From an uncultured Candidatus Saccharibacteria bacterium (lineage in GTDB: Bacteria; Patescibacteriota; CPR2; UBA1875; CAIMLA01): a stretch of 64,000 nt of DNA. Under the pieces are notes generated by a model. The model ran no database searches and was not told where the DNA came from. It was given only the letters and a program-made list of their open reading frames with translations. Positions 3,489 to 52,807 of the stretch are shown here, one piece after another. The stretch lies in contig CAZQLQ010000005.1 of NCBI GenBank assembly GCA_964594415.1, forward strand, positions 96 to 64,095, in the 5' to 3' direction. Within the stretch, counting starts at the first letter, position 1. The number at the start of each line of letters is the position of its first letter. A program made the translations under genes and the position numbers.

Positions 3489-3710
3489 ACTTCTCACTTC
3501 GTTCGAAGGATAACTCTCACGTCATCCCTTCCGACGACTCGATGAGTTCGTGTCGGATTCCGTCGTAGAGCGAAGTCGAGGAGTCTAGATCCCCGTGTCA
3601 AGCACGAGGATGACAATAAGGAGAGATCCTTCGAACCGCTTCGCTCCCTCAGGATGACATTTATATTGTTCGAGCGTTAGCGAGAACTACTCTATAAAAT
3701 ACTTAACGTC
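3489..3710. repeat. Copy 3 of the GC-rich modular repeat: core 3489-3658, A module 3667-3690, and a degenerate P-like module
   Basis: Near-identical core to copy 2. 'gttcgagcgttagcgagaactac' matches the A module of copy 2. The last 7 codons and stop of the HAD gene (3687..) lie inside the P-like module. Confidence 0.75.
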
Positions 3711-4373
3711 AGTTAGTATCCTGATTTTATTTATACCTGGCTCTTCTACCCTATTTTCTCTATCAATGAGCAGAGGATTGATTCCAACATTTTTTGCGCC
3801 ATGGTAATCGCTAATTAAACTATCCCCTATAAAAAGAACCTCATTAGGACTAAGTAAGGCTTTATTTAGGGCAGAGTAAAATATTTTTGGGTTTGGCTTT
3901 TCGTATCCTACCTCTTCTGAAGTCAGGACGAAGTCAAAATAGTCTTCTATGCCAAAGTGAATAAAAAATTTGTTCAAATATTCATTTTCGTTTGAGACAC
4001 AAGCCAAAGAAAGCCCCTCCTTCTTTAGCGTATGAAGAGTAGGGTTTACATCTTTGTAGAGAACAAAATTATCGGCATTCCCCCATGCTTCATGGAGCAA
4101 TCTTTCTCCCATCTCTCTACAATTTCCATTGTAACCCAATTCTTCAAGTATTTTACCGTTGAAGTTGTCCCAGGCCTGATGGCTTTTTTCGCCAAGCTCT
4201 TCAGCTGCAGCTTCTTCGTTGTTTTCTACCAGTCTATTCCACACTGCAGTCATCTTGTCTTCATCAATTTCCATTCCTGTGTGTTTTTTGATGATCCGTC
4301 TATACATTTCTATTTTGTTCGGATAGGCACAAAATAAGGTATCAATTGCGTCAAAGAATACGGCCTTAATCAT
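3687..4373 (-). CDS. HAD-superfamily hydrolase (subfamily IA-like)
   Basis: N-terminal 'FDAIDTLF' (DxD motif I) and a C-terminal 'FIGDS...D' motif. Confidence 0.65.
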   Translation of the reverse strand: MIKAVFFDAIDTLFCAYPNKIEMYRRIIKKHTGMEIDEDKMTAVWNRLVENNEEAAAEELGEKSHQAWDNFNGKILEELGYNGNCREMGERLLHEAWGNADNFVLYKDVNPTLHTLKKEGLSLACVSNENEYLNKFFIHFGIEDYFDFVLTSEEVGYEKPNPKIFYSALNKALLSPNEVLFIGDSLISDYHGAKNVGINPLLIDRENRVEEPGINKIRILTDVKYFIE

Positions 4374-9243: not shown

Positions 9244-10824
9244 TTATTCGGTCGCTTTTTTCAATATATCTACAACCAAGGTATTATCGAGTGATGCGAG
9301 TAGCCATCCGGCCTGAGGGCCACTCTCTTTCCCTAAAAATAATTTGTAAATACCACTAAAGGCTTCTTTTGGTTCTATTTGGATCTCATTTTTAATCTCA
9401 TGAATTTTGCTATGCAGTTCATCTCCGGACCAATTTTGTTGCGAAGAGAACACCTCCAGTAATTTCCTCAAGAACTCGATTTGCCGGTCTGAAAGTTCAT
9501 TGATGTATTGTTTTAGTGAACTGTTTTCTGGACTATCAATTATCTTAAAAATAAAACTTTCAGGGGCAAATTTTTCAAGCCAGAGCTCTGCATATTTAAT
9601 ACGCTCTTCAAGTTTTTCCTTTTCATAGTCAGTTAGTTCTGATCCTTTTTCTTTTACGGCTTCTTCGTGAATATCCAGTCTAGGCATTTGTATAGTAAGA
9701 GCTACTTTGGAAAATCTCATTCTATATCCTGGATTGAAGTTTTCTTCTTGTACTATTTCATAGGCACGAGCAAGATCTGGAAAGTCGATCTTTTTTTCAT
9801 AAGCACTCATTGCTCGGTCGTAGTCATCGTATAGGTTGGGAACCGTATTTCCGTTTGGATCAAAATCAATAGTTTTCTTTGGGTTCTTTGCCATTAAGTA
9901 TCTAAGCAGCTCTTTTGGAAGAAGCTCTGCCATCTCTCTGGCGGTAACCCCTATTCCTTTGGACGAGCTCATTTTCTTCCCGCCAATATATAACCAGTCA
10001 TACCTGATATCGATAGGCGGTTCACTATTGAAAATCTGCCTAACCAAGATATCTGCCAAATCTCTTGAGCCACCTGCTGACCAGTGGTCCTTGCCTTCCC
10101 CCTCAACGGTTATTCCAAGATGCCACCAACGCGCTGGCCATTCTACTCTCCAATAGAGCTTACCGTTACCGTTGTAGGGGCTCATTTTCCCTGTATGTCC
10201 GCACCCGTCAGCCCATTCTACTTTTGATTTTTCGCAAACATATTCTACTTTTTCTCCATCCCAGTTTGAAACGGTGGTAGTGCCGATTTTCCCGCATTTT
10301 TCGCAAATTGGCTGGAAAGGATACCAGTTTTCGCCTTTTTCGGTGCCACTATATTTTTTGTACAGTTCGGCAATTTCGGTCGAATTGTCTAAAGCAATTT
10401 TTATGGCCTCGTTATATTTGCCTTCTTTATAAAGCCTTGAGTTCCATATAAATTCAGGATTGGTGCCGGCAATCCTTACTGTTTCAATAAAATTATTCCC
10501 AAAGTACTCTGCCAGTGATTTGTCCTTATCTACAGGAGAAGGGATGTTGCAGAGGGGCTTCCCCATCTCTTTATTATAGACTGTTGAGTCTAGATAAGAA
10601 GGCAACCCGTCCATAGGATCTATATCATCCATGATAAAAGTAAATCTAGACTTTAGGCCATCCTTTAGAAGAACCTTGTTTGCGATGTCATGGATAATAA
10701 TTCCCCTTAGGCTTCCGACGTGGGCAAATCCTGAAGTGCTCCAGGCATCATCAACTAGCTGTTGCTTTTTTTTATCTAATTTTTTTGCAATTTCATCTGC
10801 CCAAAACATAATATCTGTACCCAT
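9244..10824 (-). CDS. lysK: Lysyl-tRNA synthetase, class I (archaeal-type)
   Basis: 'FWADEIA..SGFAHVGSLRG' matches the HWAD / SG..HVGN.RE start of LysRS-I. The 'KMSSSKG' motif is present. Length is about 526 aa. Confidence 0.75.
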   Translation of the reverse strand: MGTDIMFWADEIAKKLDKKKQQLVDDAWSTSGFAHVGSLRGIIIHDIANKVLLKDGLKSRFTFIMDDIDPMDGLPSYLDSTVYNKEMGKPLCNIPSPVDKDKSLAEYFGNNFIETVRIAGTNPEFIWNSRLYKEGKYNEAIKIALDNSTEIAELYKKYSGTEKGENWYPFQPICEKCGKIGTTTVSNWDGEKVEYVCEKSKVEWADGCGHTGKMSPYNGNGKLYWRVEWPARWWHLGITVEGEGKDHWSAGGSRDLADILVRQIFNSEPPIDIRYDWLYIGGKKMSSSKGIGVTAREMAELLPKELLRYLMAKNPKKTIDFDPNGNTVPNLYDDYDRAMSAYEKKIDFPDLARAYEIVQEENFNPGYRMRFSKVALTIQMPRLDIHEEAVKEKGSELTDYEKEKLEERIKYAELWLEKFAPESFIFKIIDSPENSSLKQYINELSDRQIEFLRKLLEVFSSQQNWSGDELHSKIHEIKNEIQIEPKEAFSGIYKLFLGKESGPQAGWLLASLDNTLVVDILKKATE

Positions 10825-16127: not shown

Positions 16128-17861
16128 TTAAATCTTTTTTCTAATATTTAATTTATTCAGGTAGAACAGGTACGTACTTGCAGAGAAGGCCTGAATGCCA
16201 CAACCCCACGAATCTAGCTTATTAGCCAAGCTTACTTCACCAGGCCTGCCAATGAAATTATGCCAAAGAATTTCTTCTGTTGAGGCGAAAATAAGCTCAT
16301 CGATAAAATATTTGTATTTTTTGGAATCGATATCGTTTAGCACTATAGCGGTAATATTATTTATAAAGAACCAGCTATCGCCGTTATGGTACGCATCGTT
16401 TGATAGCGACTTTTTAAATTCCGGACTTTTGATACTTATTGTTGAAAGTCCTCCCCACTTAAGCCATAAAAATGGCAGATGGCTATCTATCGTAATTTCC
16501 CATTCGCTTTTAGTTTGTAGCTCTGGTGCGAAAAAAGCCGCAAGCAAAATATTTGGTCTAGCCTCATTTTCGCCAAGCCGATCTACTTTTAAATTTCTCG
16601 AAAGCAGGTAGTGTTCTCTTATGTTCCTAATAAGATCTTCCCTTTTTGTTTTATATTTTTTGTCAAGAGTAAGCTTGTATGCTAGTTGCAAAATATTTGT
16701 ATAGTGCGCTTGAGTTTCAACCAAAAAACCTTCTCTTGCAATACTGTCCATCCATGATTCGTTCGGCGCGGAATAAATAAAGCCTAGTTCATTCTCAGTC
16801 TTTTCTAGCTCTGAAATAGCCGCTAATAACTTATTTTTTAGTTTTTCATTTTCATCTTTTGAGAGCTTTATACTTGTAATCAAAATTGCCCAGCACAATA
16901 TTCCTAGTGAGTCAGAAGTTAATTCTTTGTGACCTATCACTACAGGTATCTTTCCTGCTGGCCAATCTGCCTCTATATATTTTTTGATAATTTTTCTTAT
17001 AACAGGTTTTTCCAATACTGGTATTGATAAAAGTTCATCTCTACTCCAATGATCCGTAAACCAAGGAAGACCTGCCAAAACTCCGTTCTCCGTCGTAAGG
17101 TCTTGCATAGATTTTCTGCAAGCTACTCCGCCTGCCTTGTAAAGAGTTTCCAAGTCTGGATTGTTGTTCACCTTTGTTTTTTTATTAAAAATAAAAATTC
17201 TAGGTTTAACAATGTTCTCAAGGTTTTTCAAGGCTTCTTTTTCTGTTTCGCCGTAAGCAAATAAAATATTTTTTGCATTTACGTCGCCAAGATTGAATTC
17301 GTATAAAGTAGAGGGAGTCTGTCCTCTTTTTTCGTCTCTAGGATAATAGCATTGTTCCCATGTTTGTTTCTTTACTAATTTACCGCTAGTATGTATAGCA
17401 ACGAAAATTCCTGAGGTAATCTCGTTGTCAGTGTATTTTATTACAAGACCGTTATTGATTTCTGCTATAATTTCGTAGTTTCTTCCAAATTCGGGTGAAG
17501 AAAAAATCTTTCTGATATCAAGAAATATGCTTACGTTTTGTTTGGATGAGAGCTCGTAAGAAAAAGAAGGTTTATTTTCCGAGAGAGTAAACTTTTCTGA
17601 AAAATCACCGTATACTCTTACCACCTCTGAATTAACAGAGTCTATAATTTGTTCTTCTGGCTCGGGGTTATTAATTTTTATCTTAGCTAAAATCTTAATA
17701 TAACCCTGAGATGTTTTTACGAAAAAACCGTCATAACGACTTTGCGGCTTTTCGTAAAATATCATAAAATCTTTTCGTTTGTTTATCAGGCAGAATGCTT
17801 TGTCGTCCTTTTTTGAAACTTTTGCGATTGCCGGTGAAACGTGTTTATGAATTATTTTCAT
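16128..17861 (-). CDS. Putative alpha-glucan glycoside hydrolase, glucoamylase or debranching-enzyme-like
   Basis: Assigned by context in the glycogen cluster. Only weak motif recognition. Confidence 0.3.
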   Translation of the reverse strand: MKIIHKHVSPAIAKVSKKDDKAFCLINKRKDFMIFYEKPQSRYDGFFVKTSQGYIKILAKIKINNPEPEEQIIDSVNSEVVRVYGDFSEKFTLSENKPSFSYELSSKQNVSIFLDIRKIFSSPEFGRNYEIIAEINNGLVIKYTDNEITSGIFVAIHTSGKLVKKQTWEQCYYPRDEKRGQTPSTLYEFNLGDVNAKNILFAYGETEKEALKNLENIVKPRIFIFNKKTKVNNNPDLETLYKAGGVACRKSMQDLTTENGVLAGLPWFTDHWSRDELLSIPVLEKPVIRKIIKKYIEADWPAGKIPVVIGHKELTSDSLGILCWAILITSIKLSKDENEKLKNKLLAAISELEKTENELGFIYSAPNESWMDSIAREGFLVETQAHYTNILQLAYKLTLDKKYKTKREDLIRNIREHYLLSRNLKVDRLGENEARPNILLAAFFAPELQTKSEWEITIDSHLPFLWLKWGGLSTISIKSPEFKKSLSNDAYHNGDSWFFINNITAIVLNDIDSKKYKYFIDELIFASTEEILWHNFIGRPGEVSLANKLDSWGCGIQAFSASTYLFYLNKLNIRKKI

Positions 17862-19654
17862 TTTTTCCTCCCTGAAATATTAAGGGCTAACCTATGTGCA
17901 TCAAAATAATTTTTAGAAAGCAACTTCCAACTGTAATTTTTCGCAACTTGACTTGCATGTATTCGAGAAAGCATCCGCTCGTCCCTATTAAGTGAAGCAT
18001 ATTTATAAAGGATGCTAGTCAGGTCTTTTAGCTCTTTGTTATAGTCATAGCCGGTTCTCTTAAGTATGTAGGTTCCGGGAAGCTTCCCAGGTTTTCCAAG
18101 CTTGTTAACGGCGAATCCGTAACCGGAAAGATCAGAGGCAACTGAGGGAACACCTAAAGCATTCGCTTCTAGTGGGGTATAACCCCACGGCTCGTAAAAA
18201 GAAGGAAAAATTCCAAGGTGAGCGCCTGTCATGAAATCGTACAGATTGGTATCCAAGAGTCCGTCAGAGCCATTTAGGTAAACCGGGATAGATACTACTT
18301 TTACTTTATCGGTAGAAGAGTTGTTAAGACCTTTTTCTTTTAGTCTTTTTGTTATTGCGTCCGAGTCAGCATTTCTTAGATTATGAGTACAAAGAAGCGG
18401 CTCCCCGGATTTTGAAAATTGCTTCATTTTCGCATAGATTTTATTTCTTAGCTCTTTTTCAAGGATAAGATCGTTGGTGATCTTGAATTCCCCGGCGCAA
18501 GCTCTGATTAATTTATGATAGATACTTTCCATTTCTGACTCAAGCAATTGATTTATATTTTCAAAGATAGCTTTGCTCTGGACTAATTCTGGTCTGATTT
18601 CGTTTACTGCCGTTGGTACCGATAAAAATGCAACAACTGTTTTTTCACTATTTTCTGATTTTAACTTTTTATTTAATTCCCCTAGAGAGTCGATAAACAA
18701 ATCTATGCCTTTTGCGTGCATTTCATATCGGGCAACCAAAAAATAAATAAGAGTTTTGTCCAAATTGAATCTATAATAAGGGAAAAAATAATACATTAAA
18801 AAGTCTTTAATTATCCGCTTAAATTCAGTGTGTCTAAAAGTTATTTCCTCGGTATCAGGGAATGATTTTAAGTTAAGCCCGTTGTTTAAAATTACCTCGG
18901 GCCTTCTTCCATAAAAATGTTCAGCCTCTATGGCAGTTATATCTGAAACAGTAGTGAGGACGTCACAGTTAGCAGCTACACTTTTTTCAAGCAAATGTTT
19001 TGGGGTGATGCCTAATTCTGCTGCTTTTTGATCCGGATTTATATTCCCAATGTCTTTATAAAAATTAATTTCAGCAGATGAAAGTACTCTTCCTAAAAAT
19101 GTAGCATGGGTAGTAAAAACCGTAGCTATGTTTACTCCAACTTTTTTGAGATAAAGAATAGCAGTTCCTGCCAGCCATTCATGGGAATGCAGGATTACTT
19201 CTTCGCTTTTAAGGCAATTGTTTTTAATAATTTCAAGAATTTTAGCTACCGCCCAAGACCAAGCAACTGGTTCGTCATAATCAAAGCATGCGCTTATAGA
19301 ATCAATCTGGTACCATTCCCAAAGAGCCTTCTTTATATTGTTTACTTCAGGTAAAAAGTTTTTAAAATCAACTAAAATTACTTGCGGGGCGGATCCTATC
19401 AGCCATCTTCCATAATGAATTTCAATACCGTTTTTATCTAATTCGTCCGCTATATTTTTTAAAAAATCAGGTAATTCTTCCTGCTCAAATTGAGAAAATG
19501 AAGTTTCTCCTAAAAAAGGGCCAATTAAAAAGTAATTGTCCTCGTACTCAGTTTGCATACAATCAGATTTTGATTCTAGAACTGTATAAATTCCGCCGAT
19601 TTTGTTGCATACTTCCCAAGATGCTTCAAACAAAAAAGGTTTTTTTGTTTTCAT
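17858..19654 (-). CDS. Glycogen synthase, eukaryotic-type (GT3 family)
   Basis: N-terminal 'FEASWEVCNKIGGIYTVL' closely matches the GT3 glycogen synthase signature 'FEVAWEVANKVGGIYTV'. Confidence 0.6.
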   Translation of the reverse strand: MKTKKPFLFEASWEVCNKIGGIYTVLESKSDCMQTEYEDNYFLIGPFLGETSFSQFEQEELPDFLKNIADELDKNGIEIHYGRWLIGSAPQVILVDFKNFLPEVNNIKKALWEWYQIDSISACFDYDEPVAWSWAVAKILEIIKNNCLKSEEVILHSHEWLAGTAILYLKKVGVNIATVFTTHATFLGRVLSSAEINFYKDIGNINPDQKAAELGITPKHLLEKSVAANCDVLTTVSDITAIEAEHFYGRRPEVILNNGLNLKSFPDTEEITFRHTEFKRIIKDFLMYYFFPYYRFNLDKTLIYFLVARYEMHAKGIDLFIDSLGELNKKLKSENSEKTVVAFLSVPTAVNEIRPELVQSKAIFENINQLLESEMESIYHKLIRACAGEFKITNDLILEKELRNKIYAKMKQFSKSGEPLLCTHNLRNADSDAITKRLKEKGLNNSSTDKVKVVSIPVYLNGSDGLLDTNLYDFMTGAHLGIFPSFYEPWGYTPLEANALGVPSVASDLSGYGFAVNKLGKPGKLPGTYILKRTGYDYNKELKDLTSILYKYASLNRDERMLSRIHASQVAKNYSWKLLSKNYFDAHRLALNISGRKK

Positions 19655-19672
19655 TTACCCTCCATCCCTAAA

Positions 19673-20926
19673 TTATACCACCTGTGGTGTTGCTACACTC
19701 AAGGTTTTTATCTCGTTTTCAACGAGATTATTTTCAATCTCTGCTAGTTTTTCCTCCACTCTGAAAATAAAGTCAGTAATCACGTTTGCAAAAAAGATGT
19801 ATCCATCATGCGGTCTTTCATAAGCACTAAAATATTTGTGTACGTCACCATCGTTAAAATATTTGGTGCACATATAATAAAAGTTATCTGAAGTTTGTAA
19901 TTTACGCCATTCATTTAGTAAAGTTTCGTCACAGCATTTTTTTACTTTTTCTTCTATTTGGTATAAAAGATCGAGCGAGGTTCTTTGCATATGGTTCCCT
20001 ATCCAGGCTGAAAGGTCCCGTTCAGTATCTGCCCAAGAAACAGGCTCTACCATCGATATTTTATCCATAGCGGGGTATCTTTTTGCCTCTTCGCTTACTG
20101 TAATGAAGTCCATATCCGAATGTTTAAAAATTTCCTCAGGCATATGTCGCATAAAATCAAAAATTCCGGTATCTGCCCACTGGTGTTCACCAAACGTCTC
20201 GTAGTCCATAAATAGATTAATTACCTGTCCATTACCGTTAACTGCGGTTACCCATGAGGCAAATTTTTCAGCGCTCAGCGGCCATTCTTGCCAGGCTCTA
20301 TTTGAGAAACGAAATGCGATATCGTCAGAAAGCTTATAATTCTTCAGTAGTAATCTAACTGGCGCATCTACGGCCTCATATACGAAATTTGGGCTTTTCC
20401 AGTGAAGAACCTTATCCCAGCCTTCCGCTAGAACTGCCTTAAATCCGAGCGTAGAAACCATTTTCGATAAATAATCAAAATATACCAGCTCTGTATTTCT
20501 GAATACTTTTGGTTTTTTACCAAAAAGTTTTTCAATAGTTTCCATATGCTTTTTAACTTGTTCAAGAAATTCTTTTTCCGAGTAGATAGAAGCTAGGGAA
20601 TGATAATATGTTTCAGCTAAGAACTCCACGTGTCCTGTGGCTGCAAGTTCTTGAAAGCTTTGAATGAGGTCTGGGCGCCATTTTTGAGCTTGATCTAGGA
20701 AAGTTCCGGAAATACTATAGCTTATCTTGAATTTACCGTCGTATTTTTTTATCAACTCAAGAAGTAATTTATTTGTTGGTACGTAACATTTTGTTGCAAC
20801 TTTGTTTAGAATCGCTTTATTTTTTTTATCATCAAAATAATTTTCATTTTTTCCAATATCAATGACACGAAAATCCTTGATTCTTTCCGGCTGGTGAACG
20901 TGAAAATACATGCAAACGCTAGGCAT
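19673..20926 (-). CDS. Glycoside hydrolase family 57 protein (alpha-glucan branching or 4-alpha-glucanotransferase-like)
   Basis: N-terminal 'YFHVHQP' (GH57 HQP motif), 'ISGTFLDQ', and 'HVEFLAETYYH'. Confidence 0.55.
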   Translation of the reverse strand: MPSVCMYFHVHQPERIKDFRVIDIGKNENYFDDKKNKAILNKVATKCYVPTNKLLLELIKKYDGKFKISYSISGTFLDQAQKWRPDLIQSFQELAATGHVEFLAETYYHSLASIYSEKEFLEQVKKHMETIEKLFGKKPKVFRNTELVYFDYLSKMVSTLGFKAVLAEGWDKVLHWKSPNFVYEAVDAPVRLLLKNYKLSDDIAFRFSNRAWQEWPLSAEKFASWVTAVNGNGQVINLFMDYETFGEHQWADTGIFDFMRHMPEEIFKHSDMDFITVSEEAKRYPAMDKISMVEPVSWADTERDLSAWIGNHMQRTSLDLLYQIEEKVKKCCDETLLNEWRKLQTSDNFYYMCTKYFNDGDVHKYFSAYERPHDGYIFFANVITDFIFRVEEKLAEIENNLVENEIKTLSVATPQVV

Positions 20927-22187
20927 TTTTCACTCCTTTTAAGGTTCTTTTATATACTTCATTCATTTCTTTTGCAGCTTTTTCCCAGGTTAATAATTTT
21001 GCTTCTGCCTTTGCGTTTTTTACTAGCTCTTTAGCGTATTCTTCGTCTTCGAGTATTTTAATAATCTCCTCAGAGGTTTTTTCGATGTCCCAGAAGTCAA
21101 CTTTTACGGATGACTTTAGAACTTCTGAAATTCCAGAATTTTTGGAAATAACTACTGGTGTCCCATTTTGGGTTGCCTCTAAAGGTACAAGACCAAATGG
21201 TTCAGAAACGGATGGCATTACAAATACGTCAGCCATCTGGTAGGCCATATCTTGATCGGCATTTGCTAACCAGCTTGTATAAAGCAATTTTCCAGTTAAG
21301 CCTTCCCTGGCTCCCTCTTCAATTAATTTATTCTGCATATCACCAGGACCTACCATCATAAATTTTACATTAGGATGCAAATCAGTTACTCTTTTCGCTA
21401 CTTTTAAAAAGTAATCTGGCCCTTTTTGATACGTAATTCTTCCCAGGTATAAAACTATTTTAAAATGCTTCTTTATCGGGTTCTCTGGATATTTAATGAC
21501 TTCCCGGGGGGTAATACCATTATGGACGACATCGATTTTGTTAGGATTAACCCCATAATTATCACAAATAACTTTCTTTGTATAGTTGCTTACCGCGACA
21601 ATTCTATTTGCAGCTTTAAGCCCTTTCTTTTCTGTCTCATAAATATATTTTCCGTCATGTCTGTCAATTTCTGTGGCATGAACTTGAGTAAGCAAAGGCA
21701 CGTTTCTTCCTTTTTTCTTGGCTACGTTTCTTGCGGCTATTCCAGCCTGATAAGTCATCCAGTCGTGTGCGTGAATTATGTCATAATCTAGGTTTTCGCA
21801 AAGAGCTTTAACTCCCTTGATGTATAAATTGACATTTGGCAAAACTGATTTCTCTTGATCAAATAAACATGCTGTACACATCAGAGATTCATCGATTTTT
21901 ACGCTAAAACCTTGGTATCCATTTACTAAGGAGCATTTATTCTTTTTAGCCATCTTAAGGCAATATTCATCATGCTCATCCCCAAATATTTGTTTTGATG
22001 CGTCTAGAACGTTCATCCATGAGTAATCACCGCCATAAATCTTTGGCAATATAAAATCAATCTCCACTCCAAGGCCGGCAAGGCCTTTTGTGAGTCCCTC
22101 ACAAGCATTACCTAACCCACCGGAGTGAAAGGGCGGCAATTCCCAACCAAGCATCAAGACTTTTATGGCCCCCTCCTGTGTATTCAT
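20919..22187 (-). CDS. glgA: Glycogen/starch synthase-like glycosyltransferase (GlgA-like, GT5/GT4)
   Basis: 'GWELPPFHSGGLGNA', 'IIHAHDWMTYQAG', and 'MPSVSEPFGLVPLEA' parallel GlgA motifs. Confidence 0.6.
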   Translation of the reverse strand: MNTQEGAIKVLMLGWELPPFHSGGLGNACEGLTKGLAGLGVEIDFILPKIYGGDYSWMNVLDASKQIFGDEHDEYCLKMAKKNKCSLVNGYQGFSVKIDESLMCTACLFDQEKSVLPNVNLYIKGVKALCENLDYDIIHAHDWMTYQAGIAARNVAKKKGRNVPLLTQVHATEIDRHDGKYIYETEKKGLKAANRIVAVSNYTKKVICDNYGVNPNKIDVVHNGITPREVIKYPENPIKKHFKIVLYLGRITYQKGPDYFLKVAKRVTDLHPNVKFMMVGPGDMQNKLIEEGAREGLTGKLLYTSWLANADQDMAYQMADVFVMPSVSEPFGLVPLEATQNGTPVVISKNSGISEVLKSSVKVDFWDIEKTSEEIIKILEDEEYAKELVKNAKAEAKLLTWEKAAKEMNEVYKRTLKGVKNA

Positions 22188-22244
22188 ACTTTTTATATTT
22201 TATAACTTTTATAATTAAACAACAAGAATATATTTAATGAAAAA

Positions 22245-22264
22245 AGCCGACGTTATTGTCGGCT
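22245..22264 (-). terminator. Intrinsic terminator overlapping the stop of the 22263..22601 gene
   Basis: agccgacg-ttat-tgtcggct hairpin flanked by A/T runs. Confidence 0.6.
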
Positions 22265-22601
22265 AAAAATGTGTTGGATGGGGCGATCTGGGAGTTAGAC
22301 GTTTTTTTTCTATTGAAATATTTTGTTCAACTATGTTTTCGATTCTTAAATTGTAAATATCTTTGTAATCATACCAATCTTTTGTTTGAATTATCTCTTT
22401 TCGAATTTTCCAGATAAGAACTTCGATCAAATAGTCTTCATAATAACTTCTGTCAAATTTTCTTTTATATGCGTTTAGAGTAATATCATCCGTTTCGATA
22501 TCTAAAAAAATAACATGAAATCCTTTTAGAAAAACCTTAACTTGTACAGAAATTTGTGCATCGTTTTGTTTCTTAAAAGATATTTGTTGCAACTGCTTCA
22601 C
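22263..22601 (-). CDS. Hypothetical protein
   Basis: ORF only. Confidence 0.35.
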   Translation of the reverse strand: MKQLQQISFKKQNDAQISVQVKVFLKGFHVIFLDIETDDITLNAYKRKFDRSYYEDYLIEVLIWKIRKEIIQTKDWYDYKDIYNLRIENIVEQNISIEKKRLTPRSPHPTHF

Positions 22602-22625: not shown

Positions 22626-22946
22626 CTACGATGTCAATACCATGTAATGCACATAAAAGATGTTGTTCAGATGAATATTCTTTATTTTTATTTTTAGTCG
22701 TTGGACGATACCTGTTTTTCTTGCTTCCAACCTGATCAAATGCAACAATCTCTCATTCATTAGCATATCTAGCGGGCATTCTGGATCATTATAGATGAAA
22801 GCAGTTATTAACCATTGATAGATAGTGAGTTTGAGCTCTACTTGTTCTGGCCCTAGTTTGATAACAAACTTTGCTTTGACCGGCTTATCTTTTTTGACGG
22901 AGATCACTTGTATTCCCTCCTTTTCTATTTGATTATTAATGTTCAT
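22626..22946 (-). CDS. Hypothetical protein
   Basis: ORF only. Confidence 0.35.
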   Translation of the reverse strand: MNINNQIEKEGIQVISVKKDKPVKAKFVIKLGPEQVELKLTIYQWLITAFIYNDPECPLDMLMNERLLHLIRLEARKTGIVQRLKIKIKNIHLNNIFYVHYMVLTS

Positions 22947-23035: not shown

Positions 23036-23341
23036 TTATTTTTCTGCTTTTTTGTCTAGTTTATCTACGCCAAGCTTCTTGACCCCGAAATATACCACAA
23101 AAGCAATTACTAGAAAATCGATTAATATACTTGCAAAGTTACCCCAAGATATTGTTGCTTCCCCTACTTCATAAGTAGCCTTTTGAAGCCCTTCAGTGGA
23201 GCCGAGAACTAGCCCAAGCAGAGGGTTAATAATATCTGTTACTAATGAGGATACTACTTTGGCGATCGCGCCTCCTAGAATAAATCCTACCGCAAGACCG
23301 ACAACGCCCTGCTCTCTAATAAAATTAATAAATCCTTTCAT
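23036..23341 (-). CDS. mscL: Large-conductance mechanosensitive channel
   Basis: 'FIREQGVVGLAVGFILGGAIAKVVSSLVTDIINPLLG'. Confidence 0.85.
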   Translation of the reverse strand: MKGFINFIREQGVVGLAVGFILGGAIAKVVSSLVTDIINPLLGLVLGSTEGLQKATYEVGEATISWGNFASILIDFLVIAFVVYFGVKKLGVDKLDKKAEK

Positions 23342-23455: not shown

Positions 23456-26400
23456 ATGGAAACTGGATTTCAAATATTTTTTGATATTACTGGAAGGAGG
23501 CGTAAGATTACGGACTTCTTTCTTTCGATTTTTCTAATCTTTTCAAGTTGCTTACTGCTTTTTATAGGAGCCAAAATCATTGGCGTGGAGGGTATAAAGA
23601 AAATAGGGAAAAAGATAAATAATCAAGAATATAGTCATGAAACAAAAGTTGCTATGTTATATACAGAAAATCATGAAAGCTCCTTAAAAATTTTTAGCGA
23701 GCAAGTGAGCAATCTTGATACATTGATCGTCCCAAGGTATCTCATTGCAGACAAAGTAATTAATATACCAGAAGACTATGAATTGCTAGTAAAAAACATG
23801 GAGTATATTGAAACAAATAGCCCGACACATTACAAAAAATTTTTTTTATTGAGCGAAGTTAATTATTCTATACCTCCAACTGAGCGCCAAAACAGAAGAG
23901 TAAATAATGACTTTATCTACCTGGGAGAGAAAAACTTAGATCAGATAGTCAATGATTTGGTAAAAAATGATATCGACGGCTTGTTATTGGAGGTTGACTT
24001 TAGCGATCTAGAAGCCGAAACTTTATTGCCTCAATATTTGAATCAGATAAATACAATAAAGAGACTTTTTGAAATTAACAATCTCAAATTGGGACTTAAG
24101 TTTAGAATTAACGACTTCAGCGAAAAAAAATTAGATTTTTTCTCCAGGGCTGATCTTTTATATATTGATTACGATTACTCATCAGGATTTAATTTAGCCT
24201 TGAATAGTTTTTCTGAAAAAAAAGACTTACTCGGAGGTAAAAAAATTATTTTTGAATTACCCACTATATCACAAAAAACAAGCCTTGATTTGTCAAATGA
24301 TTATATTAATAGTATTGATTATGCCGAAATAGAGAAATTGATTCTTGAAACAAAAATTAGTAACAGGGATTTTGAGGACCCAGCTTTTACCAGAGATAAT
24401 TTTAAATATATATTAAGAGACGCAGTCAGCTCATATAATTACATGACCAAAATAGAGTCTAATACTTTGTCTGGCAGTAACGAGATTATGGAATATTCTG
24501 TCTGCGATCCTGGATTTGAAGAGTTTACGGTATGGAATATTATTACTGATAATTTTAGTTCTGAAAAAATTAGTTTGTTATCTAATAATATAAAATCTAC
24601 CGTCAAAGTAAACTTATTGGGTGAAGGAAAAATATTTGGTGTTTATGACTCATCAGAATTTGGTATAAGAGAGTTGGAAACGGATGGCAACAACACAATA
24701 ATCACTAGCACAGTAAAAAAGAGTTATAAGCCAGGAACAGTTATAAAATCGGGGAAAAAGGAAAATAAGATTGCACTAACCTTTGACGACGGTCCTCACC
24801 CTGTCTATACGAAAAAGATTTTAGATATTTTAGACAAATATAATGTAAAGGCAACATTTTATATGGTTGGTGAAAATATAGCCTCTTATCCTTCATTGGC
24901 AAAAGAGATTGCTGATAAAGGGCATGAGATAGAAAACCATAGTTATAGCCACCCGCATTTCAACTTTTTGGACGCCGAGTCATTAGTCAATCAGATTGCT
25001 TCTGATAATAAATTAATAGAAGAGATTACTGGTAAAAAGCCAAAATATTTTCGTCTCCCCTATGGAGAGGATAACGAGCTTGATACATCATCTGATTTTG
25101 AGTATTTATTGATGCTTAAAAATGAAGGCCTTAAAGCAAGTGAGTACGATATTGACTCAAAGGATTGGACTTCTTCCAGTGGTAAGCAGATAGAAGATAA
25201 GGTAATAAATGATATTGAGAAGTCAAATGGTAATTACAGTCAAATACTGTTTCATGATTCTAGTGTCAATTCCATAAAGACCATAGAAGCTCTTCCTCAA
25301 ATCATTGAGTATTTAATGAAAAAAAATATAGAGATCGTTCTTGTAAGCGAATTATCACAAGAAGAAAAGCAGCAAAACTCAAATGTAACAAATATTAGTA
25401 CTGCAATTGATTTAATGAACAAGATTATGAAATTTTTTTCATATCTAATGATTTTCTTTTTTGGCTTTTCAGTCTTTAAATACACCTGGGTCATTGTTGG
25501 GATGGTTATCTACAATATAAAGAGAGTCCTTAAAAACAACAAAACAAAGGAAGTAACCGAATATAACAAGAAGATATCTATAATAATTGCTTGTTATAAT
25601 GAGGAAAAGGTTATCGGAAAGACGATTGAGTCTTTACAACTAAATGGTTATCACAATATAGAAATTATTATTTCTAACGATGGTTCAGTTGATAAGACAG
25701 CGGAAATAGTAAGAGAATATGCATCTTCTGACGATAGAATCGTTTTATTGGATCTTGAACACGGCGGGAAAGCGAAGGCAATTGATGCAGGTATTTATGC
25801 GAGTACTGGCGAATGGCTTGTTTTTTGCGACGCTGATACGATTTTTAAAAAAGATTCAATAAAAAAATTCTCTAATTTGATTGCGCAAAACGGAAAATTG
25901 GCAGCTGTTGCAGGAAGAATTCTTGTTGGTAATAATCTTAACTTATTAACATATTCTCAGTTTATTGAATATGCTATTGCACATCGTTTCTTGAAGCCCA
26001 CACAAGATGTATTCAATTCAATTACTGTGGTTCCTGGCGCTATTGGGCTTTGGAATAAATCAAAGCTTTTAAAAGCAGGTGGTTTTGCTCCGAATACTCT
26101 CGCAGAAGACGCAGACACGACGATAAAAGTAGTAAGTCTTGGCAATAGAGTGAGATTTGACGACGACGTTGTGGCGAAAACTGAAGTTCCGGAAACCTTG
26201 AGAATGTTGTTTAAGCAAAGAACGAGGTGGCAACTTGGAAATATGCAAGCGTTAAGGAAACATTACAAGGGCTTTATGAACTACAGATATGGCCCAATAG
26301 GATTTATCGGGCTGCCCATGCTTTTTATTGAGATCACAAATGCTGTTTTGTTTCCTATGTTTATCCTTTTTATTGCTTGGCTTTTTATCGCTGATTATAA

Positions 26401-26704
26401 CAATATGAGTTATGTTTTTTCAGCTATGCAGGTCGAATATATTTATTCGGAAACTTTTAGGCAAATGTCAATGGCCTTACTTTTATTTGAAATATTCTTA
26501 TGTGTAGGGTCAATTACGGTTGAAGAGGCTTATCCAAGAACTAAGCTAACTGCTTTTGCTACCCTACCCTTCTATTTTACTTTTTATAAGTTTTTTTTAA
26601 GTTATTGTGCGATAGTTTCATTCCTCCGGGCATTAAGAGGAACAAGTCAGGGCTGGGGCCATATGACAAGGACCTCGCATGTCAAGTTGAAGGATGTTGT
26701 ATAA
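23456..26704 (+). CDS. Multidomain membrane protein: N-terminal TM and ~380-aa domain of unknown fold, then a NodB polysaccharide deacetylase, then a processive family-2 glycosyltransferase (NodC/PgaC/chitin-synthase-like) with C-terminal TM helices
   Basis: NodB domain 'ALTFDDGPHPVYTKKILDILDKYNVKATFYMVGENI...HSYSHP'. GT2 domain 'ISIIIACYNEEK', 'CDADT', and 'QRTRWQLG' (QxxRW motif). Confidence 0.7.
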   Translation: METGFQIFFDITGRRRKITDFFLSIFLIFSSCLLLFIGAKIIGVEGIKKIGKKINNQEYSHETKVAMLYTENHESSLKIFSEQVSNLDTLIVPRYLIADKVINIPEDYELLVKNMEYIETNSPTHYKKFFLLSEVNYSIPPTERQNRRVNNDFIYLGEKNLDQIVNDLVKNDIDGLLLEVDFSDLEAETLLPQYLNQINTIKRLFEINNLKLGLKFRINDFSEKKLDFFSRADLLYIDYDYSSGFNLALNSFSEKKDLLGGKKIIFELPTISQKTSLDLSNDYINSIDYAEIEKLILETKISNRDFEDPAFTRDNFKYILRDAVSSYNYMTKIESNTLSGSNEIMEYSVCDPGFEEFTVWNIITDNFSSEKISLLSNNIKSTVKVNLLGEGKIFGVYDSSEFGIRELETDGNNTIITSTVKKSYKPGTVIKSGKKENKIALTFDDGPHPVYTKKILDILDKYNVKATFYMVGENIASYPSLAKEIADKGHEIENHSYSHPHFNFLDAESLVNQIASDNKLIEEITGKKPKYFRLPYGEDNELDTSSDFEYLLMLKNEGLKASEYDIDSKDWTSSSGKQIEDKVINDIEKSNGNYSQILFHDSSVNSIKTIEALPQIIEYLMKKNIEIVLVSELSQEEKQQNSNVTNISTAIDLMNKIMKFFSYLMIFFFGFSVFKYTWVIVGMVIYNIKRVLKNNKTKEVTEYNKKISIIIACYNEEKVIGKTIESLQLNGYHNIEIIISNDGSVDKTAEIVREYASSDDRIVLLDLEHGGKAKAIDAGIYASTGEWLVFCDADTIFKKDSIKKFSNLIAQNGKLAAVAGRILVGNNLNLLTYSQFIEYAIAHRFLKPTQDVFNSITVVPGAIGLWNKSKLLKAGGFAPNTLAEDADTTIKVVSLGNRVRFDDDVVAKTEVPETLRMLFKQRTRWQLGNMQALRKHYKGFMNYRYGPIGFIGLPMLFIEITNAVLFPMFILFIAWLFIADYNNMSYVFSAMQVEYIYSETFRQMSMALLLFEIFLCVGSITVEEAYPRTKLTAFATLPFYFTFYKFFLSYCAIVSFLRALRGTSQGWGHMTRTSHVKLKDVV

Positions 26705-35647: not shown

Positions 35648-37402
35648 TTAGAGCTTATAGATTAATATAGAACCACCGATGTTGTCAACAGGTTCGATAC
35701 TATCAAGGAATGAATAATCCACACCTCCGTTTGCACCTTTTTTTAGCTTTGAGTTCTGATAAAAAGTAGCACTAACGGCAAAATAACCGTTCGGACGGCC
35801 ATTTTGAACATGCCATTCAATAGCCTTATCTCCCATATAATAAAGAATTTCTGGGTCGTAACTACCAGGAAAAACATCCACGTATATTTGGTCTACATTA
35901 TTATCAATCGTCCATTGGTTTAGGCGTTTTATGTCTTGGCCCCAATCAATGTTAGAATCTGTAAGATATTTATAGCCATTTTTATAACCGCCAATAAACT
36001 CGTTGAAATAAGACAAGTAGTGAGGGTAGGTAAATAACCCAGAAAGCATATACCAGCCCATCATAAGAACAATAAACCAAGCGATGCTAAATTCTCTGAG
36101 GTTTTTACTCGTCTTCTTAAGATTATCAAGAGTAATCAGGTTTGCTAATGGCGAAACAAATACAAATATATATGCATAAATTGGCAACATGTAGCGAATT
36201 CCAAGGCATAATTTGCCCTGCATTCCCATTGCCAAAAGAACCGCAGGAAGGACCCAAAAATAAGTTTCTGTAAACCAGTCCTTTTTGTCTAGTTTTTTCC
36301 ATAAAACGAAAGTCAGAATAAGCAGTATGAAAATAGGAATCTGAGTTTTTAGAGCAATAACGACTGGGTAATAATACCACCAGCCTTGATTTGAAGTCAT
36401 GCCCAAAAGATATGCATCGTGTCCTCCCTCTACATGAGCAGTAACCATCGCAAAACCCAAAAGCCATTGTGCAAGGGGTTTTGTGAGAGCATTGTCGGAC
36501 ATTATTTGAAGCGGTGCGGTAAATGGACCTACTTGTGACTCTGTGATCAAATCCTTTTGTACTTGAGAAGGCATATTAATTGTGTGAGGTATATAGTAAA
36601 GCCACATTGTTAAAATGCCGATAAAAACTATTATTGCGAAGCCTAAGAAGCTACTAAGTGCACGCTTCGTCCATTTCTTATCGTTTACTTGTTCAAGTAT
36701 GTTTTTATTGCTTTCATTACCCTTCTTGAATATCAACAGTAACCAGATTAATAAATAGGTTGGCGCCAATACTGCTGCTGAAAATTTCGTCACCAACACA
36801 AGGCCGAAAGCAAGTCCTGCGATAATTATGTTCTTTAAATTTGGTTTTTTGATGAATTTGTAAACCGTGTACGTACTAACAAAAAATGCAAACGAAATTC
36901 CCAAGTCCGTAGTAACAAACCTTGAATGTGCAATTATGTTTACGTTGAATACAAACAAAATTAATGCAAATAAGCCAGCTTTCTCTCCGAAAAGTTCCTT
37001 TGCCCATTTATAAACAAAAAAACCGAATAAAACAGACAAAAGCATTATTGGGATTTCGGCCACTAGCTTTATAAAATCAGGGTTGTTGCCCATCTTGAAT
37101 AGAAAGCTCCATCCCATTTCCCATTGGTTATTGACCACTGGGTTGTTGGACTCCCAAAGGCTGAAAGGAAATTCAAGATTAAACAATGTCAAAGGTAACG
37201 CTGCAAGATCTTTAATCAGTGGTGGATGTTCAGGGTTAAGCCTATAATCTCCAGTAGTAATATATGAGTATCCAGAAGGAATGTGGGCTATCTCATCTAC
37301 GATAACCGAATCGCCTTTTGCAGAAAAAAACATTAATAAAAACATTGTAATTAGTAGAGATGAGATCGATATAGGATAAAACCATTTTTTTAGAAAATTC
37401 AT
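35648..37402 (-). CDS. GT-C fold membrane glycosyltransferase (GT39/GT83, PMT/ArnT-like), polyprenyl-phosphate-sugar dependent
   Basis: First-loop 'VIVDEIAHIPSGYSYITTGDYRLNPEHPPLIKDLAALP' (DE motif), more than 10 TM helices, and a ~200-aa C-terminal extracytoplasmic domain. Confidence 0.5.
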   Translation of the reverse strand: MNFLKKWFYPISISSLLITMFLLMFFSAKGDSVIVDEIAHIPSGYSYITTGDYRLNPEHPPLIKDLAALPLTLFNLEFPFSLWESNNPVVNNQWEMGWSFLFKMGNNPDFIKLVAEIPIMLLSVLFGFFVYKWAKELFGEKAGLFALILFVFNVNIIAHSRFVTTDLGISFAFFVSTYTVYKFIKKPNLKNIIIAGLAFGLVLVTKFSAAVLAPTYLLIWLLLIFKKGNESNKNILEQVNDKKWTKRALSSFLGFAIIVFIGILTMWLYYIPHTINMPSQVQKDLITESQVGPFTAPLQIMSDNALTKPLAQWLLGFAMVTAHVEGGHDAYLLGMTSNQGWWYYYPVVIALKTQIPIFILLILTFVLWKKLDKKDWFTETYFWVLPAVLLAMGMQGKLCLGIRYMLPIYAYIFVFVSPLANLITLDNLKKTSKNLREFSIAWFIVLMMGWYMLSGLFTYPHYLSYFNEFIGGYKNGYKYLTDSNIDWGQDIKRLNQWTIDNNVDQIYVDVFPGSYDPEILYYMGDKAIEWHVQNGRPNGYFAVSATFYQNSKLKKGANGGVDYSFLDSIEPVDNIGGSILIYKL

Positions 37403-37429
37403 AATGCCCCCAATATTTATGTTAAGTTA

Positions 37430-37570
37430 TTAAAATGGTAAAAAATTAAAAAAGATTACGTATAAGAAAAAAAACCACTCTTTCTTTAAAAGATATAATG
37501 CCAAAACCGCTAAAGCTATTAGTATAAAGACCAATATTTCACTAAGTTCTTTTTTGCTTGTAGATCTCAA
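37430..37570 (-). CDS. Possible 46-aa hydrophobic micropeptide (TTG start) directly after the GT2 gene
   Basis: SD 'GGAGGG' 6 nt upstream of a TTG that lies 2 nt after the GT2 TAG stop. The product is (M)RSTSKKELSEILVFILIALAVLALYLLKKEWFFFLYVIFFNFLPF. It is not in the ORF track. Confidence 0.2.
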   Translation of the reverse strand: MRSTSKKELSEILVFILIALAVLALYLLKKEWFFFLYVIFFNFLPF

Positions 37571-37571
37571 A

Positions 37572-38465: not shown

Positions 38466-38485
38466 TAAAACCTCATATTAATTTT

Positions 38486-49880: not shown

Positions 49881-50788
49881 TATTCACCTCTTAAATTTGT
49901 TAATTTATAAGCCTTTAGAACATTTGATAGTAGCATAGCAACGGTCATTGGTCCTACTCCGCCTGGATTTGGCGTGATGAATGAGGCATTTTTGGCAACG
50001 TTTTCAAAATCAACGTCTCCAGCTACCCTGCCATCAATAAATGATGTGCCGACATCTATTACAACAGCGTTTTTGCTCACCATCCCCTTCTTTATTAGTT
50101 TTGCCTGACCGGTAGCAGAGATGATAATCTCAGCGTTTTGGGCTAATTCTTTGAGATTTCTTGTCTTTGAATTTGCTATCGTAACCGTAGCTTTTTCTCT
50201 AAGTAAAAGTAGGGCCAATGGCTTTCCTACCAGATTACTTTGACCGACTACGAGCACTCTTTTTGACACAAGAGGCACCTGGTAGTACCTCAAAAGGTTT
50301 ATTATTCCTTCGGGCGTAGCAGGGCAAAGCCCATCGAGTCCTTTTGCTAGTTTACCGAGATTTGTCGAACTCAAACCGTCAACATCTTTGTTAGGGGAAA
50401 TGCTTTCGAGTATATTATTTGTATCAATTTCCTGAGGAAGAGGTAACTGCATAATTATACCGGTTATTTTCGGATCTTGATTCAGTCTTGCTATTACATC
50501 AATAATTTTCTTTTCAGATACACTTTCTTTAAATTTTATAACCTTAAAGCCGATGCCAACTTTTTTGCACGCTTGTTTTTTGATATTGATGTACTTCAAG
50601 CTAGAATCATCATTGCCAACAACAACTACAGCAAGTGTTAGCTTAAGCTTTTCTTGCTTAATCTCCTTGCCTAGTTCTTCCTTGATAATTAAAGCTAGTT
50701 CTCTGCCTGACATCAGTACCATTTTATTTCTCCAAAGTAACATATTTGTAAGCGTAATTATTTGTTTTTTGTAATTTCGATTCCTCAA
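49880..50788 (-). CDS. folD: Bifunctional methylenetetrahydrofolate dehydrogenase/cyclohydrolase
   Basis: '[28 protein letters not shown]' and '[16 protein letters not shown]'. Confidence 0.85.
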
Positions 50789-52248: not shown

Positions 52249-52265
52249 ATTTACCTCCTAAAAAA

Positions 52266-52805: not shown

Positions 52806-52807
52806 TC

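Follow-up and report, generated by a model that had tools for sequence, protein, structure and literature searches.

The stretch of DNA analysed here, 64,000 nucleotides (nt) of contig CAZQLQ010000005.1 from an uncultured Candidatus Saccharibacteria bacterium (hereafter the window), carries four consecutive minus-strand genes for enzymes of alpha-glucan metabolism. These are a glucosyltransferase on the border of the glycosyltransferase families GT4 and GT5 (the GT4/5 enzyme), an enzyme of glycoside hydrolase family 57 (GH57), a GT3 glycogen synthase, and an amylo-alpha-1,6-glucosidase-like protein of the GH133 type (the GDE_C protein, after its Pfam domain). Their open reading frames (ORFs) occupy exactly the coordinates given in an earlier note made from the sequence alone, and the motifs quoted there are all present: FEASWEVCNKIGGIYTV as residues 9-25 of the GT3 protein, YFHVHQP as residues 7-13 of the GH57 protein and HAHDWMT as residues 139-145 of the GT4/5 protein. 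The cluster is probably a cytoplasmic operon for the synthesis and turnover of glycogen (alpha-1,4/alpha-1,6-glucan), of the type found in DPANN archaea and in bacteria of the candidate phyla radiation (CPR) and not of the bacterial glgBXCAP type.

Organization of the Cluster

The genes and the features at their 5' border are listed in Table 1.

Table 1. Features of the glycogen cluster in the order of transcription, with positions in the window.
Feature	Position	Strand	Evidence
First gene: GT4/GT5-border retaining GT-B glucosyltransferase, 422 aa	20919..22187	-	Pfam, profile
Second gene: GH57 'alpha-amylase' (AAMY) subfamily enzyme, 417 aa	19673..20926	-	Pfam, fingerprint of conserved sequence regions
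Third gene: GT3 glycogen synthase, DPANN/CPR clade, 598 aa	17858..19654	-	PF05693, neighbour-joining tree
Fourth gene: GH133-type (GDE_C) amylo-alpha-1,6-glucosidase-like protein, 577 aa	16128..17861	-	Pfam, ortholog profile
Terminator-like hairpin	22245..22264	-	7-bp stem with 5 GC pairs, then TTTTTT; consensus match only
AT-rich leader of 57 nt, presumed promoter region of the four-gene unit	22188..22244	-	Sequence read directly

In the direction of transcription, the first gene runs 8 nt into the second, a gap of 18 nt follows before the third, and the third shares 4 nt with the fourth. The hairpin, read from 22264 to 22245, follows directly on the stop codon of the ORF at 22263-22601 and stands 57 nt ahead of the ATG at 22187; it is terminator-like and would mark the end of the upstream transcription unit and the 5' border of the cluster. 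Judging from the gene junctions and this hairpin, the four genes probably form one transcription unit. A promoter scan remained at chance level, with 23 sites against 24.8 expected, and no promoter is claimed; on the 3' side of the last gene no terminator was detected, and the gene for PBP1A starts 58 nt on. All four proteins lack a hydrophobic N-terminus and membrane segments (maximum of the 19-residue Kyte-Doolittle window at most 1.34). The four enzymes are therefore placed in the cytoplasm, and a secreted amylase system was rejected, since signal peptides are absent in all four proteins.

GT3 Glycogen Synthase

The GT3 family membership proposed in the earlier note for the 598-aa protein was borne out. 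The protein matches PF05693 (Glycogen_syn) over residues 10-592 with an E-value of 9.8e-142 (474 bits against a cut-off of 27), and it aligns end to end (residues 6-592) with the eukaryotic enzymes, at E-values of 1.2e-119 for human GYS1, 6.7e-103 for yeast Gsy2 and 3.8e-101 for gsy-1 of Caenorhabditis elegans. Identity to the human and yeast enzymes is 33-35% over trimmed columns, and the helical insertion is kept. Retaining GT-B synthases carry their catalytic and nucleoside diphosphate (NDP)-binding residues in two motifs, the R...K pair of 'GRYExxNKG' and the E-x7-E of 'YEPWGYTPxE'. In the window protein the corresponding R309, K315 and E488-x7-E496 align with the human and yeast motifs and are invariant in 23 homologues.

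The residues through which human GYS1 is regulated have been assigned roles in a cryo-EM study (PMC9287172). Their counterparts in the window protein were taken from the HMMER alignment, and their conservation was read over the 23 homologues (Table 2).

Table 2. Regulatory residues of human GYS1 and the aligned residues of the window GT3 protein.
GYS1 residue and role	Window GT3	State in homologues
R579, glucose 6-phosphate (Glc6P) phosphate ligand	R557	Mostly Lys or Arg
R582, Glc6P phosphate ligand	R560	Invariant, 23/23
R586, Glc6P phosphate ligand	R564	Lys/Arg, 23/23
K301, Glc6P phosphate ligand	K279	Lys/Arg, 23/23
H501, Glc6P phosphate ligand	H479	22/23
R580, senses phosphorylated tails	D558	Variable
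R588, senses phosphorylated tails	H566	Variable
R591, senses phosphorylated tails	Q569	Variable

The N- and C-terminal tails that bear the phosphosites are also missing, as the protein starts 5 residues before the aligned core and ends about 6 residues after it. The alignment suggests that the allosteric phosphosugar site may have been kept in this enzyme and the control by phosphorylation not.

The earlier note had proposed a phylogeny of the GT3 protein as a check. A neighbour-joining (NJ) tree was built from 591 trimmed columns of 93 sequences, including human and yeast, with 200 bootstraps; it is a distance tree only and leaves the deep branching unresolved. The window protein falls into a clade that unites all DPANN and CPR sequences (plus Ca. 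Aquicultor) and excludes those of FCB, PVC and eukaryotes (100% bootstrap). Within this clade it groups with 'bacterium CG2_30_37_16' and three metagenomic sequences (99.5%), and the group is sister to an Aquicultor/Actinomycetota group (100%). The CPR sequences fall at three or more separate places in the tree, and their monophyly was found in 0% of the replicates. This scatter of CPR sequences among archaeal ones points to gene exchange of the storage pathway between the domains.

GT4/GT5-Border Glucosyltransferase

The 422-aa protein passes the Pfam cut-offs of Glycos_transf_1 (4.6e-35, 121.1 bits) and Glyco_transf_4 (1.4e-21, 77.7 bits), and over residues 9-211 also that of Glyco_transf_5, the N-domain of starch synthases (5.5e-18, 66 bits against 22.7). 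The earlier label of a bacterial-type GlgA-like synthase is not correct. The protein reaches no NCBIfam cut-off, scoring 89.2 bits against 328 for TIGR02095 (glgA), 106 bits against 302 for TIGR02149 (glgA_Coryne) and 45-49 bits against 459-603 for the PRK00654 equivalogs. With a profile of 24 homologues, the best matches in the PDB were GlgM (1.3e-29), BshA (2.3e-28), MshA (2.6e-26) and the GlgA of Pyrococcus abyssi (1.9e-25); the GT4 enzymes and the archaeal GlgA thus lie within four orders of magnitude and are equally distant. The AlphaFold2 (AF2) model (pLDDT 85) is, by Foldseek, equally close to GT4 and GT5 neighbours. What resembles GlgA and GT5 is only the N-terminal 130-200 residues or so, of which residues 9-141 match starch synthase IV in the profile search, together with the HAHDW motif. 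R250/K255 and the motif E329-x7-E337 are invariant in the 24 homologues. NCBI labels such genes GT4, and so does a review in its treatment of archaeal clusters (PMC11046441). From its sequence the protein is assigned to the retaining GT-B enzymes on the GT4/GT5 border, for which 'GlgA-like in parts' is a fair description, and it is a candidate for a de novo or priming alpha-1,4-glucan synthase.

The N-domain of this protein contains an insertion (residues ~66-115) that is poorly conserved and varies among homologues, with a mean pLDDT of 45-56 over residues 71-110. GT4 enzymes in the PDB align to the protein only from about residue 113 on.

GH133-Type Glucosidase

The putative (alpha/alpha)6 glycoside hydrolase of the earlier note can now be named as a GH133/GDE_C protein. 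Its match to the Pfam family GDE_C is modest and limited to the C-terminal half (residues 375-563, E=3.8e-10; 39.7 bits, cut-off 21). When 15 orthologues from related loci were combined into a profile, its sole PDB matches were the glucosidase domain of the Candida glabrata and human glycogen debranching enzymes (GDE; 5d06 etc.), with E-values of 1e-6 to 1e-5. In the hidden Markov model alignment the invariant W272-x-R274-D275 pairs with W1075-G-R-D1078 of the C. glabrata enzyme (CgGDE), in which glucosidase activity depends on D1078. Outside the aligned blocks, the invariant WMD372 and E542 stand at the relative positions expected for D1241 and E1492 of CgGDE, and D372 and E542 would be the counterparts of these two catalytic residues. 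A GH13 transferase domain was not found in the protein. A GH133 null mutant of Sulfolobus over-accumulates glycogen.

GH57 Enzyme

The GH57 call for the 417-aa protein was correct (Pfam Glyco_hydro_57, E=7e-78, 262 bits against a cut-off of 21). The catalytic pair is intact and invariant in 21 homologues. It consists of the nucleophile E146 in the third conserved sequence region (CSR-3), which aligns with the Glu of 'WLTERV' in the 4-alpha-glucanotransferase of Thermococcus litoralis (TLGT), and the proton donor D241 in CSR-4, which aligns with the Asp of 'FDAELFG' in AmyC. The five regions read HVHQP, GHVEFL, RNTELV, FMDYETFGEH and LQTSDNFYY. Members of the 'alpha-amylase' (AAMY) subfamily have Arg or Glu in place of Trp ahead of the nucleophile (logo position 12), a Thr at position 23, two Tyr at positions 35 and 36 and a mean length of 414 aa, a combination that serves as their fingerprint (Martinovicova and Janecek, 2018). 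The window protein has R143 at position 12, T244 at position 23 and Y350-Y351 at positions 35-36, all of them kept in 21/21 homologues. Its regions are near-identical to the rows of Methanocaldococcus jannaschii, Methanococcus maripaludis, Picrophilus torridus, Saccharibacteria TM7x and Sulfolobus acidocaldarius AAY80547 in the table of PMC6037648, from which the comparison rows were taken. By this fingerprint the enzyme belongs to the AAMY subfamily. The S. acidocaldarius entry is presumably saci_1200 (amyA), to judge by the order of its accession relative to the GH133 entry AAY80544.

In both sequence and fold searches the enzyme is far from every solved GH57. Direct searches of PDB sequences with the GH57 and GDE_C proteins gave no match, and profiles were required. 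The GH57 profile reached TLGT at 0.004, AmyC at 0.007 and the branching enzyme of Thermus thermophilus at 0.06. For the AF2 model (pLDDT 79), the best Foldseek match was again TLGT (E=2.6e-14), with branching enzymes and amylopullulanases close behind, and all matches had 13-16% identity and a TM-score of about 0.6. The protein scores 14.7 bits against a cut-off of 920 for the branching-enzyme equivalog NF041566, Pfam finds no BE_C domain in it, and it has 417 aa against about 520-550 aa for branching enzymes.

In S. acidocaldarius, amyA and glgA are co-transcribed and deletion of amyA leaves the cells without glycogen, a phenotype restored by complementation (PMC8158581). Because AmyA is needed for glycogen accumulation in that organism, an anabolic role of the window GH57 is plausible by analogy.

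Distribution of the Cluster in Other Genomes

A scan with the GT3 alignment over one genome per GTDB species returned at least 80 loci, around which partner genes were found by tblastn with the four window proteins; the taxon counts that follow describe a sample, not a census. Among the matches listed, at least one partner gene flanks GT3 in 28 of 32 archaeal loci (Woesearchaeota, Nanoarchaeota, Altiarchaeales and others) and in 6 of 7 CPR loci (Azambacteria, Paceibacterota, Parcubacteria), against none of the 41 loci from Planctomycetota/Verrucomicrobiota, Bacteroidota and others (PVC, FCB). With such a difference the arrangement is far beyond chance. The GT4/5 gene stands directly upstream of the GH57 gene, on the same strand, in every one of the 22 loci among the matches listed that have both.

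The order GT4/5-GH57-GT3-GDE_C, with or without a GalT-family gene, was found in CG2_30_37_16, Azambacteria, Paceibacterota, Parcubacteria KatS3mg097, CPR2, Ca. Aquicultor, Woesearchaeota and Altiarchaeales. The form without GalT, as in the window, occurs in Azambacteria (locus L008), in Parcubacteria (L063), in L053 and in the closest relative, L087, where the next ORF after GT3 begins MKIIHKHVTPAI, the same as in the window; an Altiarchaeales locus (L090) has the window's gene order plus one extra small ORF. A five-gene form, GT4/5-GH57-GT3-GalT-like-GDE_C on one strand, is present in L001, L018, L084, L085 and L088; CPR2, CG2_30_37_16, a JGI metagenome contig and, among Actinomycetota, Ca. 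Aquicultor have this form. The closest named relatives of the cluster proteins are those of candidate division CPR2 (63-73% identity) and of 'bacterium CG2_30_37_16'; judged by these relatives and by the gene content of the window, the host most likely belongs to the CPR/Patescibacteria. Amino acid identity to L087 is 79-85%. Synonymous sites are saturated (0.77-0.80), against non-synonymous differences of 0.08-0.12 per site, which indicates strong purifying selection on the cluster genes.

The earlier note had presented the cluster as something unusual, and this view has to be given up: the module is widespread and already sequenced and annotated in DPANN archaea and CPR bacteria, and the window holds a further copy of what is found, in numerous annotated homologous loci, in many public assemblies.

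The GalT-family gene lies between GT3 and GDE_C in L084 (12359-13285), L085 (12160-13101), L001 (8775-9698) and many DPANN loci, and is absent from L087. Its products share the conserved motifs CxFCPGNE and H[S/T/P]HxQ, and that of L026 passes TIGR00209; they may be UDP-glucose-forming transferases or NDP-glucose phosphorylases. In CPR2 (L084, 1758-3521) and in the metagenomic L088 (3619-5376), a gene for a short GT35 glucan phosphorylase (585-587 aa) precedes the cluster by a few kb. Only the CG2_30_37_16 cluster has a gene for a PF05635 '23S rRNA intervening sequence protein' between GT3 and its GalT-like gene (L001, 8317-8724).

Two Planctomycetota loci have a GT4/5-GH57-GDE trio without GT3. 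In one of them, Phycisphaerae L089 (5669-15245), the trio with its AAMY-type GH57 is followed within 1-5 kb by a 524-aa GT, a GH57 with a BE_C domain (576 aa) and a third GT4, and the AAMY type and the canonical branching type of GH57 coexist in one locus.

Partners Absent From the Window

Pfam scans of essentially all ORFs of at least 150 aa in the window revealed no nucleotidyltransferase (glgC/galU), GH13 enzyme, GT35 phosphorylase or GT8 glycogenin. This agrees with the earlier note as to glgC, GH13 and phosphorylase. A GalT-like gene was not found by tblastn in the whole window. A reading of the HAD hydrolase at 3687-4373 as a beta-phosphoglucomutase was rejected, since the protein scores 33 bits against a model cut-off of 189. 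If the organism has an NDP-glucose supply, a phosphorylase or a canonical branching enzyme, their genes must lie in other parts of the genome.

Comparison With Known Glycogen Systems

The cluster is most readily compared with the glycogen clusters of DPANN and other archaea as described by Cifuente et al. (2024; PMC11046441, Table 3 and Fig. 7), which contain GT3, GT4, GH57-amylase and GH133 genes. Both the window and those clusters, as far as the review describes them, lack glycogenin and a classical branching enzyme and have a GT4 of unclear role, and the gene order of the window is shared by the Woesearchaeota and Altiarchaeales loci. Unlike them, the window comes from a bacterium, as SecA, DnaB, DnaX, PBP1A and MreB attest, and its lineage lacks the GalT-like gene of many DPANN, CPR2 and Aquicultor clusters. 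Such accounts already covered the GT3 synthases of DPANN, Euryarchaeota, PVC and Bacteroidota, the GT4 genes of unclear role and the GH57-amylase and GH133 genes of archaeal glycogen clusters. CPR or Patescibacteria are not mentioned in the review's account of these clusters (PMC11046441). Glycogen storage has been described as a DPANN hallmark, and glycogen or starch genes are mentioned in metabolic reconstructions of CPR; no paper was found that describes this exact module in CPR.

Four other systems share parts of it. In the glg locus of S. acidocaldarius (amyA-glgA, glgC-gaa-glgX), an AAMY-type GH57 likewise lies beside a glucan synthase with GH133 near, but that locus has glgC and a GH15 glucoamylase and no GT3 (Lee et al., 2021; PMC8158581). 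The order there is amyA then glgA, whereas the window has the synthase first. The GlgA of Sulfolobus is a GT5 of 566 aa and unlike the synthases of the window. With the eukaryotic GYS1/Gsy2 system the window shares full-length GT3 homology, the phosphate ligands of Glc6P and a GH133 homologous to the C-terminal domain of GDE; it differs in having no phosphorylated tails, no GT8 glycogenin and no GH13 transferase domain on its GH133, and in the replacement of R580, R588 and R591 of GYS1 by Asp, His and Gln. The bacterial glgBXCAP system has the same purpose, intracellular storage and mobilization of alpha-glucan, but none of its five classical families (GlgC, GT5 GlgA, GH13 GlgB, GH13 GlgX, GT35 GlgP) is present in the cluster or the window, and the idea of a non-classical alpha-glucan pathway in the earlier note was sound in general. 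The Planctomycetota and Picrophilus trios, finally, use the same GT4/5 and GH57 subfamilies (GH57 ~60% identical) in the same order, followed by GDE_C; they differ from the window in lacking GT3 and in a GDE that carries a GDE_N domain, and in L089 the canonical GH57 with BE_C adjoins the trio. A cluster of GT4, GH133 and GH57 in P. torridus appears in the review's survey of archaea (PMC11046441).

Proposed Pathway and Alternatives

The analysis gives the families of the four enzymes; the steps described here are those that members of these families would be expected to carry out. The GT4/5 enzyme would start or extend alpha-1,4 chains from NDP-glucose and could in this way supply the primer needed by GT3. 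This assignment is suggested because it is the sole synthase in the GT3-less trios, because eukaryotic GT3 enzymes are primer-dependent according to the review cited above (PMC11046441) and because no glycogenin is encoded in the window. GT3 would then be the main elongating synthase, with UDP-glucose as its probable donor, by analogy with eukaryotic GT3 and in view of the GalT-family gene in sister clusters. It is possibly activated by Glc6P, since the phosphate-binding residues of human GYS1 are kept, and would operate without control by phosphorylation. The GH57 enzyme would reshape the nascent chains, by cleavage or transfer, as needed for net accumulation, a step that matches the subfamily member AmyA of Sulfolobus. 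During degradation, the GH133 enzyme would take off alpha-1,6-linked glucose stubs.

Several points weigh against this picture of a glycogen operon. The review describes archaeal GT3 enzymes as uncharacterized and the role of the GT4 as unclear (PMC11046441), and the donor sugar, the need for a primer and the activation by Glc6P are here all deduced from alignment. The GH57 of M. jannaschii, the only biochemically characterized member of the subfamily, has been described as a hydrolytic alpha-amylase, and nanohaloarchaeal homologues are found in the secretome and digest external starch and glycogen. With no NDP-glucose source, phosphorylase or canonical branching enzyme in the window, a complete pathway is not demonstrated; co-transcription is deduced from spacing alone, and the unit may continue into the PBP1A gene. 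Taking all this into account, we still regard a glycogen synthesis and turnover operon as the probable function of the cluster.

A bolder version of this proposal seems to us unlikely to be right in full. It would make the GT4/5-GH57 pair a glycogenin-independent machine for initiation and chain shaping, in which GH57 catalyses transfer (branching or disproportionation), feeding a GT3 that is activated by Glc6P and independent of phosphorylation. Together with the stand-alone GH133, the pair and GT3 would form a mobile DPANN-CPR module and a prokaryotic precursor of the eukaryotic glycogen system, with its Glc6P-controlled GT3 and indirect debranching.

Among the alternatives, the one to be taken most seriously, though it too is rather unlikely, is that GH57 is the missing branching enzyme, so that the cluster would be a complete synthesis set of two synthases and a brancher, with one debrancher. 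Whether this type of GH57 is the missing brancher of archaea without GH13 or GH57 branching enzymes is a question raised in the 2024 Chem Rev review (PMC11046441, in its discussion of such archaea), and it fits with the absence of a canonical branching enzyme from the window, the loss of glycogen in the amyA deletion mutant of Sulfolobus and the translational coupling of the GH57 gene to a synthase gene. The earlier note had also thought of a branching enzyme, and in that form the suggestion is not supported: the protein fails the branching-enzyme model by a wide gap (14.7 bits against 920), has no BE_C domain and is assigned to the AAMY subfamily, for which no branching activity is on record. 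In L089, moreover, an AAMY-type GH57 lies within 5 kb of a canonical GH57 with BE_C and so is not the sole brancher there, from which it follows that the role of the AAMY type is not simply classical branching.

A second alternative would divide the 'indirect' debranching of eukaryotes between two proteins, with GH57 as a 4-alpha-glucanotransferase that trims the branches of limit dextrin to one glucose and GH133 removing it; a eukaryote-like synthase would then be paired with eukaryote-like debranching. It would account for a GH133 that lacks the GH13 transferase domain used by eukaryotic GDE, for TLGT being the nearest structure and best profile match of GH57, for the linkage of GH57 and GDE_C in the GT3-less trios and for the GT35 phosphorylase near the cluster in CPR2 and L088. 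The match to the transferase is weak, however (15% identity, TM-score 0.62), and barely above those to branching enzymes and amylopullulanases; GH57 is linked most tightly to the GT4/5 gene and not to GDE_C, the phenotype of the Sulfolobus amyA mutant is loss of glycogen and not excess, and the window is without a phosphorylase. On balance this division of labour is doubtful.

It is also quite improbable that the cluster is mainly catabolic, the GH57 alpha-amylase and the GH133 debrancher digesting alpha-glucans of a host or the environment, as proposed for nanohaloarchaea, and the transferases only re-storing the sugar. Starch and glycogen are indeed hydrolysed by the M. jannaschii GH57 of the same subfamily, Ca. 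Nanohalobium uses an amylase, a debranching enzyme and a glucoamylase on the external polymers, and CPR surveys class GH57 under starch degradation. In the window, however, signal peptides and membrane anchors are missing from all four proteins, two of the four genes, including the first of the unit, are synthases, and the genetics of Sulfolobus puts this type of GH57 on the side of synthesis.

The last alternative concerns the GT4/5 enzyme, which might be a GlgM-like maltose-1-phosphate synthase or an Rv3032-like maker of a specialized small glucan in place of a glycogen primer synthase. In mycobacteria, methylglucose lipopolysaccharide is made with a pair of this kind, the GT4 Rv3032 and the GH57 Rv3031. 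For the window enzyme either role is very unlikely, even with GlgM as the top PDB match and Rv3032 homologues said to be common in archaea, as GlgM leads BshA, MshA and the P. abyssi GlgA by a negligible margin, the N-terminal part fits the starch-synthase domain, neither GlgE nor a methyl- or acyltransferase is encoded in the window or the related loci examined, and such archaeal GT4s are only ~20% identical to GlgM by the review's figures (PMC11046441). The GlgE pathway was rejected for want of a GlgE-like GH13 in the window or related loci, and methylglucose polysaccharide synthesis of the mycobacterial type for want of methyl- and acyltransferases nearby.

If the division of labour proposed for the glycogen operon is right, this compact gene set would be a test bed for three questions: how GT3 is primed without glycogenin, what substitutes for a branching enzyme in organisms with only the 'amylase' type of GH57, and whether Glc6P activation of glycogen synthase predates eukaryotes. 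Of use to specialists are the conserved Glc6P pocket, the strict coupling of GT4/5 and GH57, the two GH57 types in L089 and the patchy CPR/DPANN phylogeny, none of which is a first-order surprise. The module is common to ultra-small archaea and ultra-small bacteria.

Flanking Genes

The genes on either side of the cluster are bacterial housekeeping genes, coding for SecA, DnaB, DnaX, RecO, RecR, GreA, PBP1A, PBP2, MreB and MreC; ribosomal proteins and several aminoacyl-tRNA synthetases are also encoded there, and the GC content is about 36%. One of the synthetases is a class I (archaeal-type) lysyl-tRNA synthetase in this bacterial context (9244-10824, minus strand; PF01921, E=3.9e-96). Between the cluster and mscL (23036-23341) lie two small minus-strand ORFs without Pfam match, 22263-22601 (112 aa) and 22626-22946 (106 aa).

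Three further regions of the window attracted attention. A plus-strand gene at 23456-26704 codes for a fusion protein of 1082 aa, whose N-terminal ~430 aa match no family and are followed by a NodB-type polysaccharide deacetylase domain (433-541) and a GT2 domain like those of chitin and PNAG synthases (707-977); it may be a joint synthase and deacetylase for an exopolysaccharide. A run of PMT_2 (584 aa), GT2 (297 aa) and PMT (417 aa) genes, with an EamA transporter gene behind it, occupies 35648-39739 on the minus strand and resembles the blocks for glycosylation of proteins or lipids that are typical of CPR genomes. A contiguous folate/dTMP block occupies 48660-53476 on the minus strand and comprises SHMT, FolD, DHFR, ThyA, a dCTP deaminase-like protein and dCMP deaminase; its ThyA, of 351 aa, has a long insertion relative to the 266-position Pfam model.

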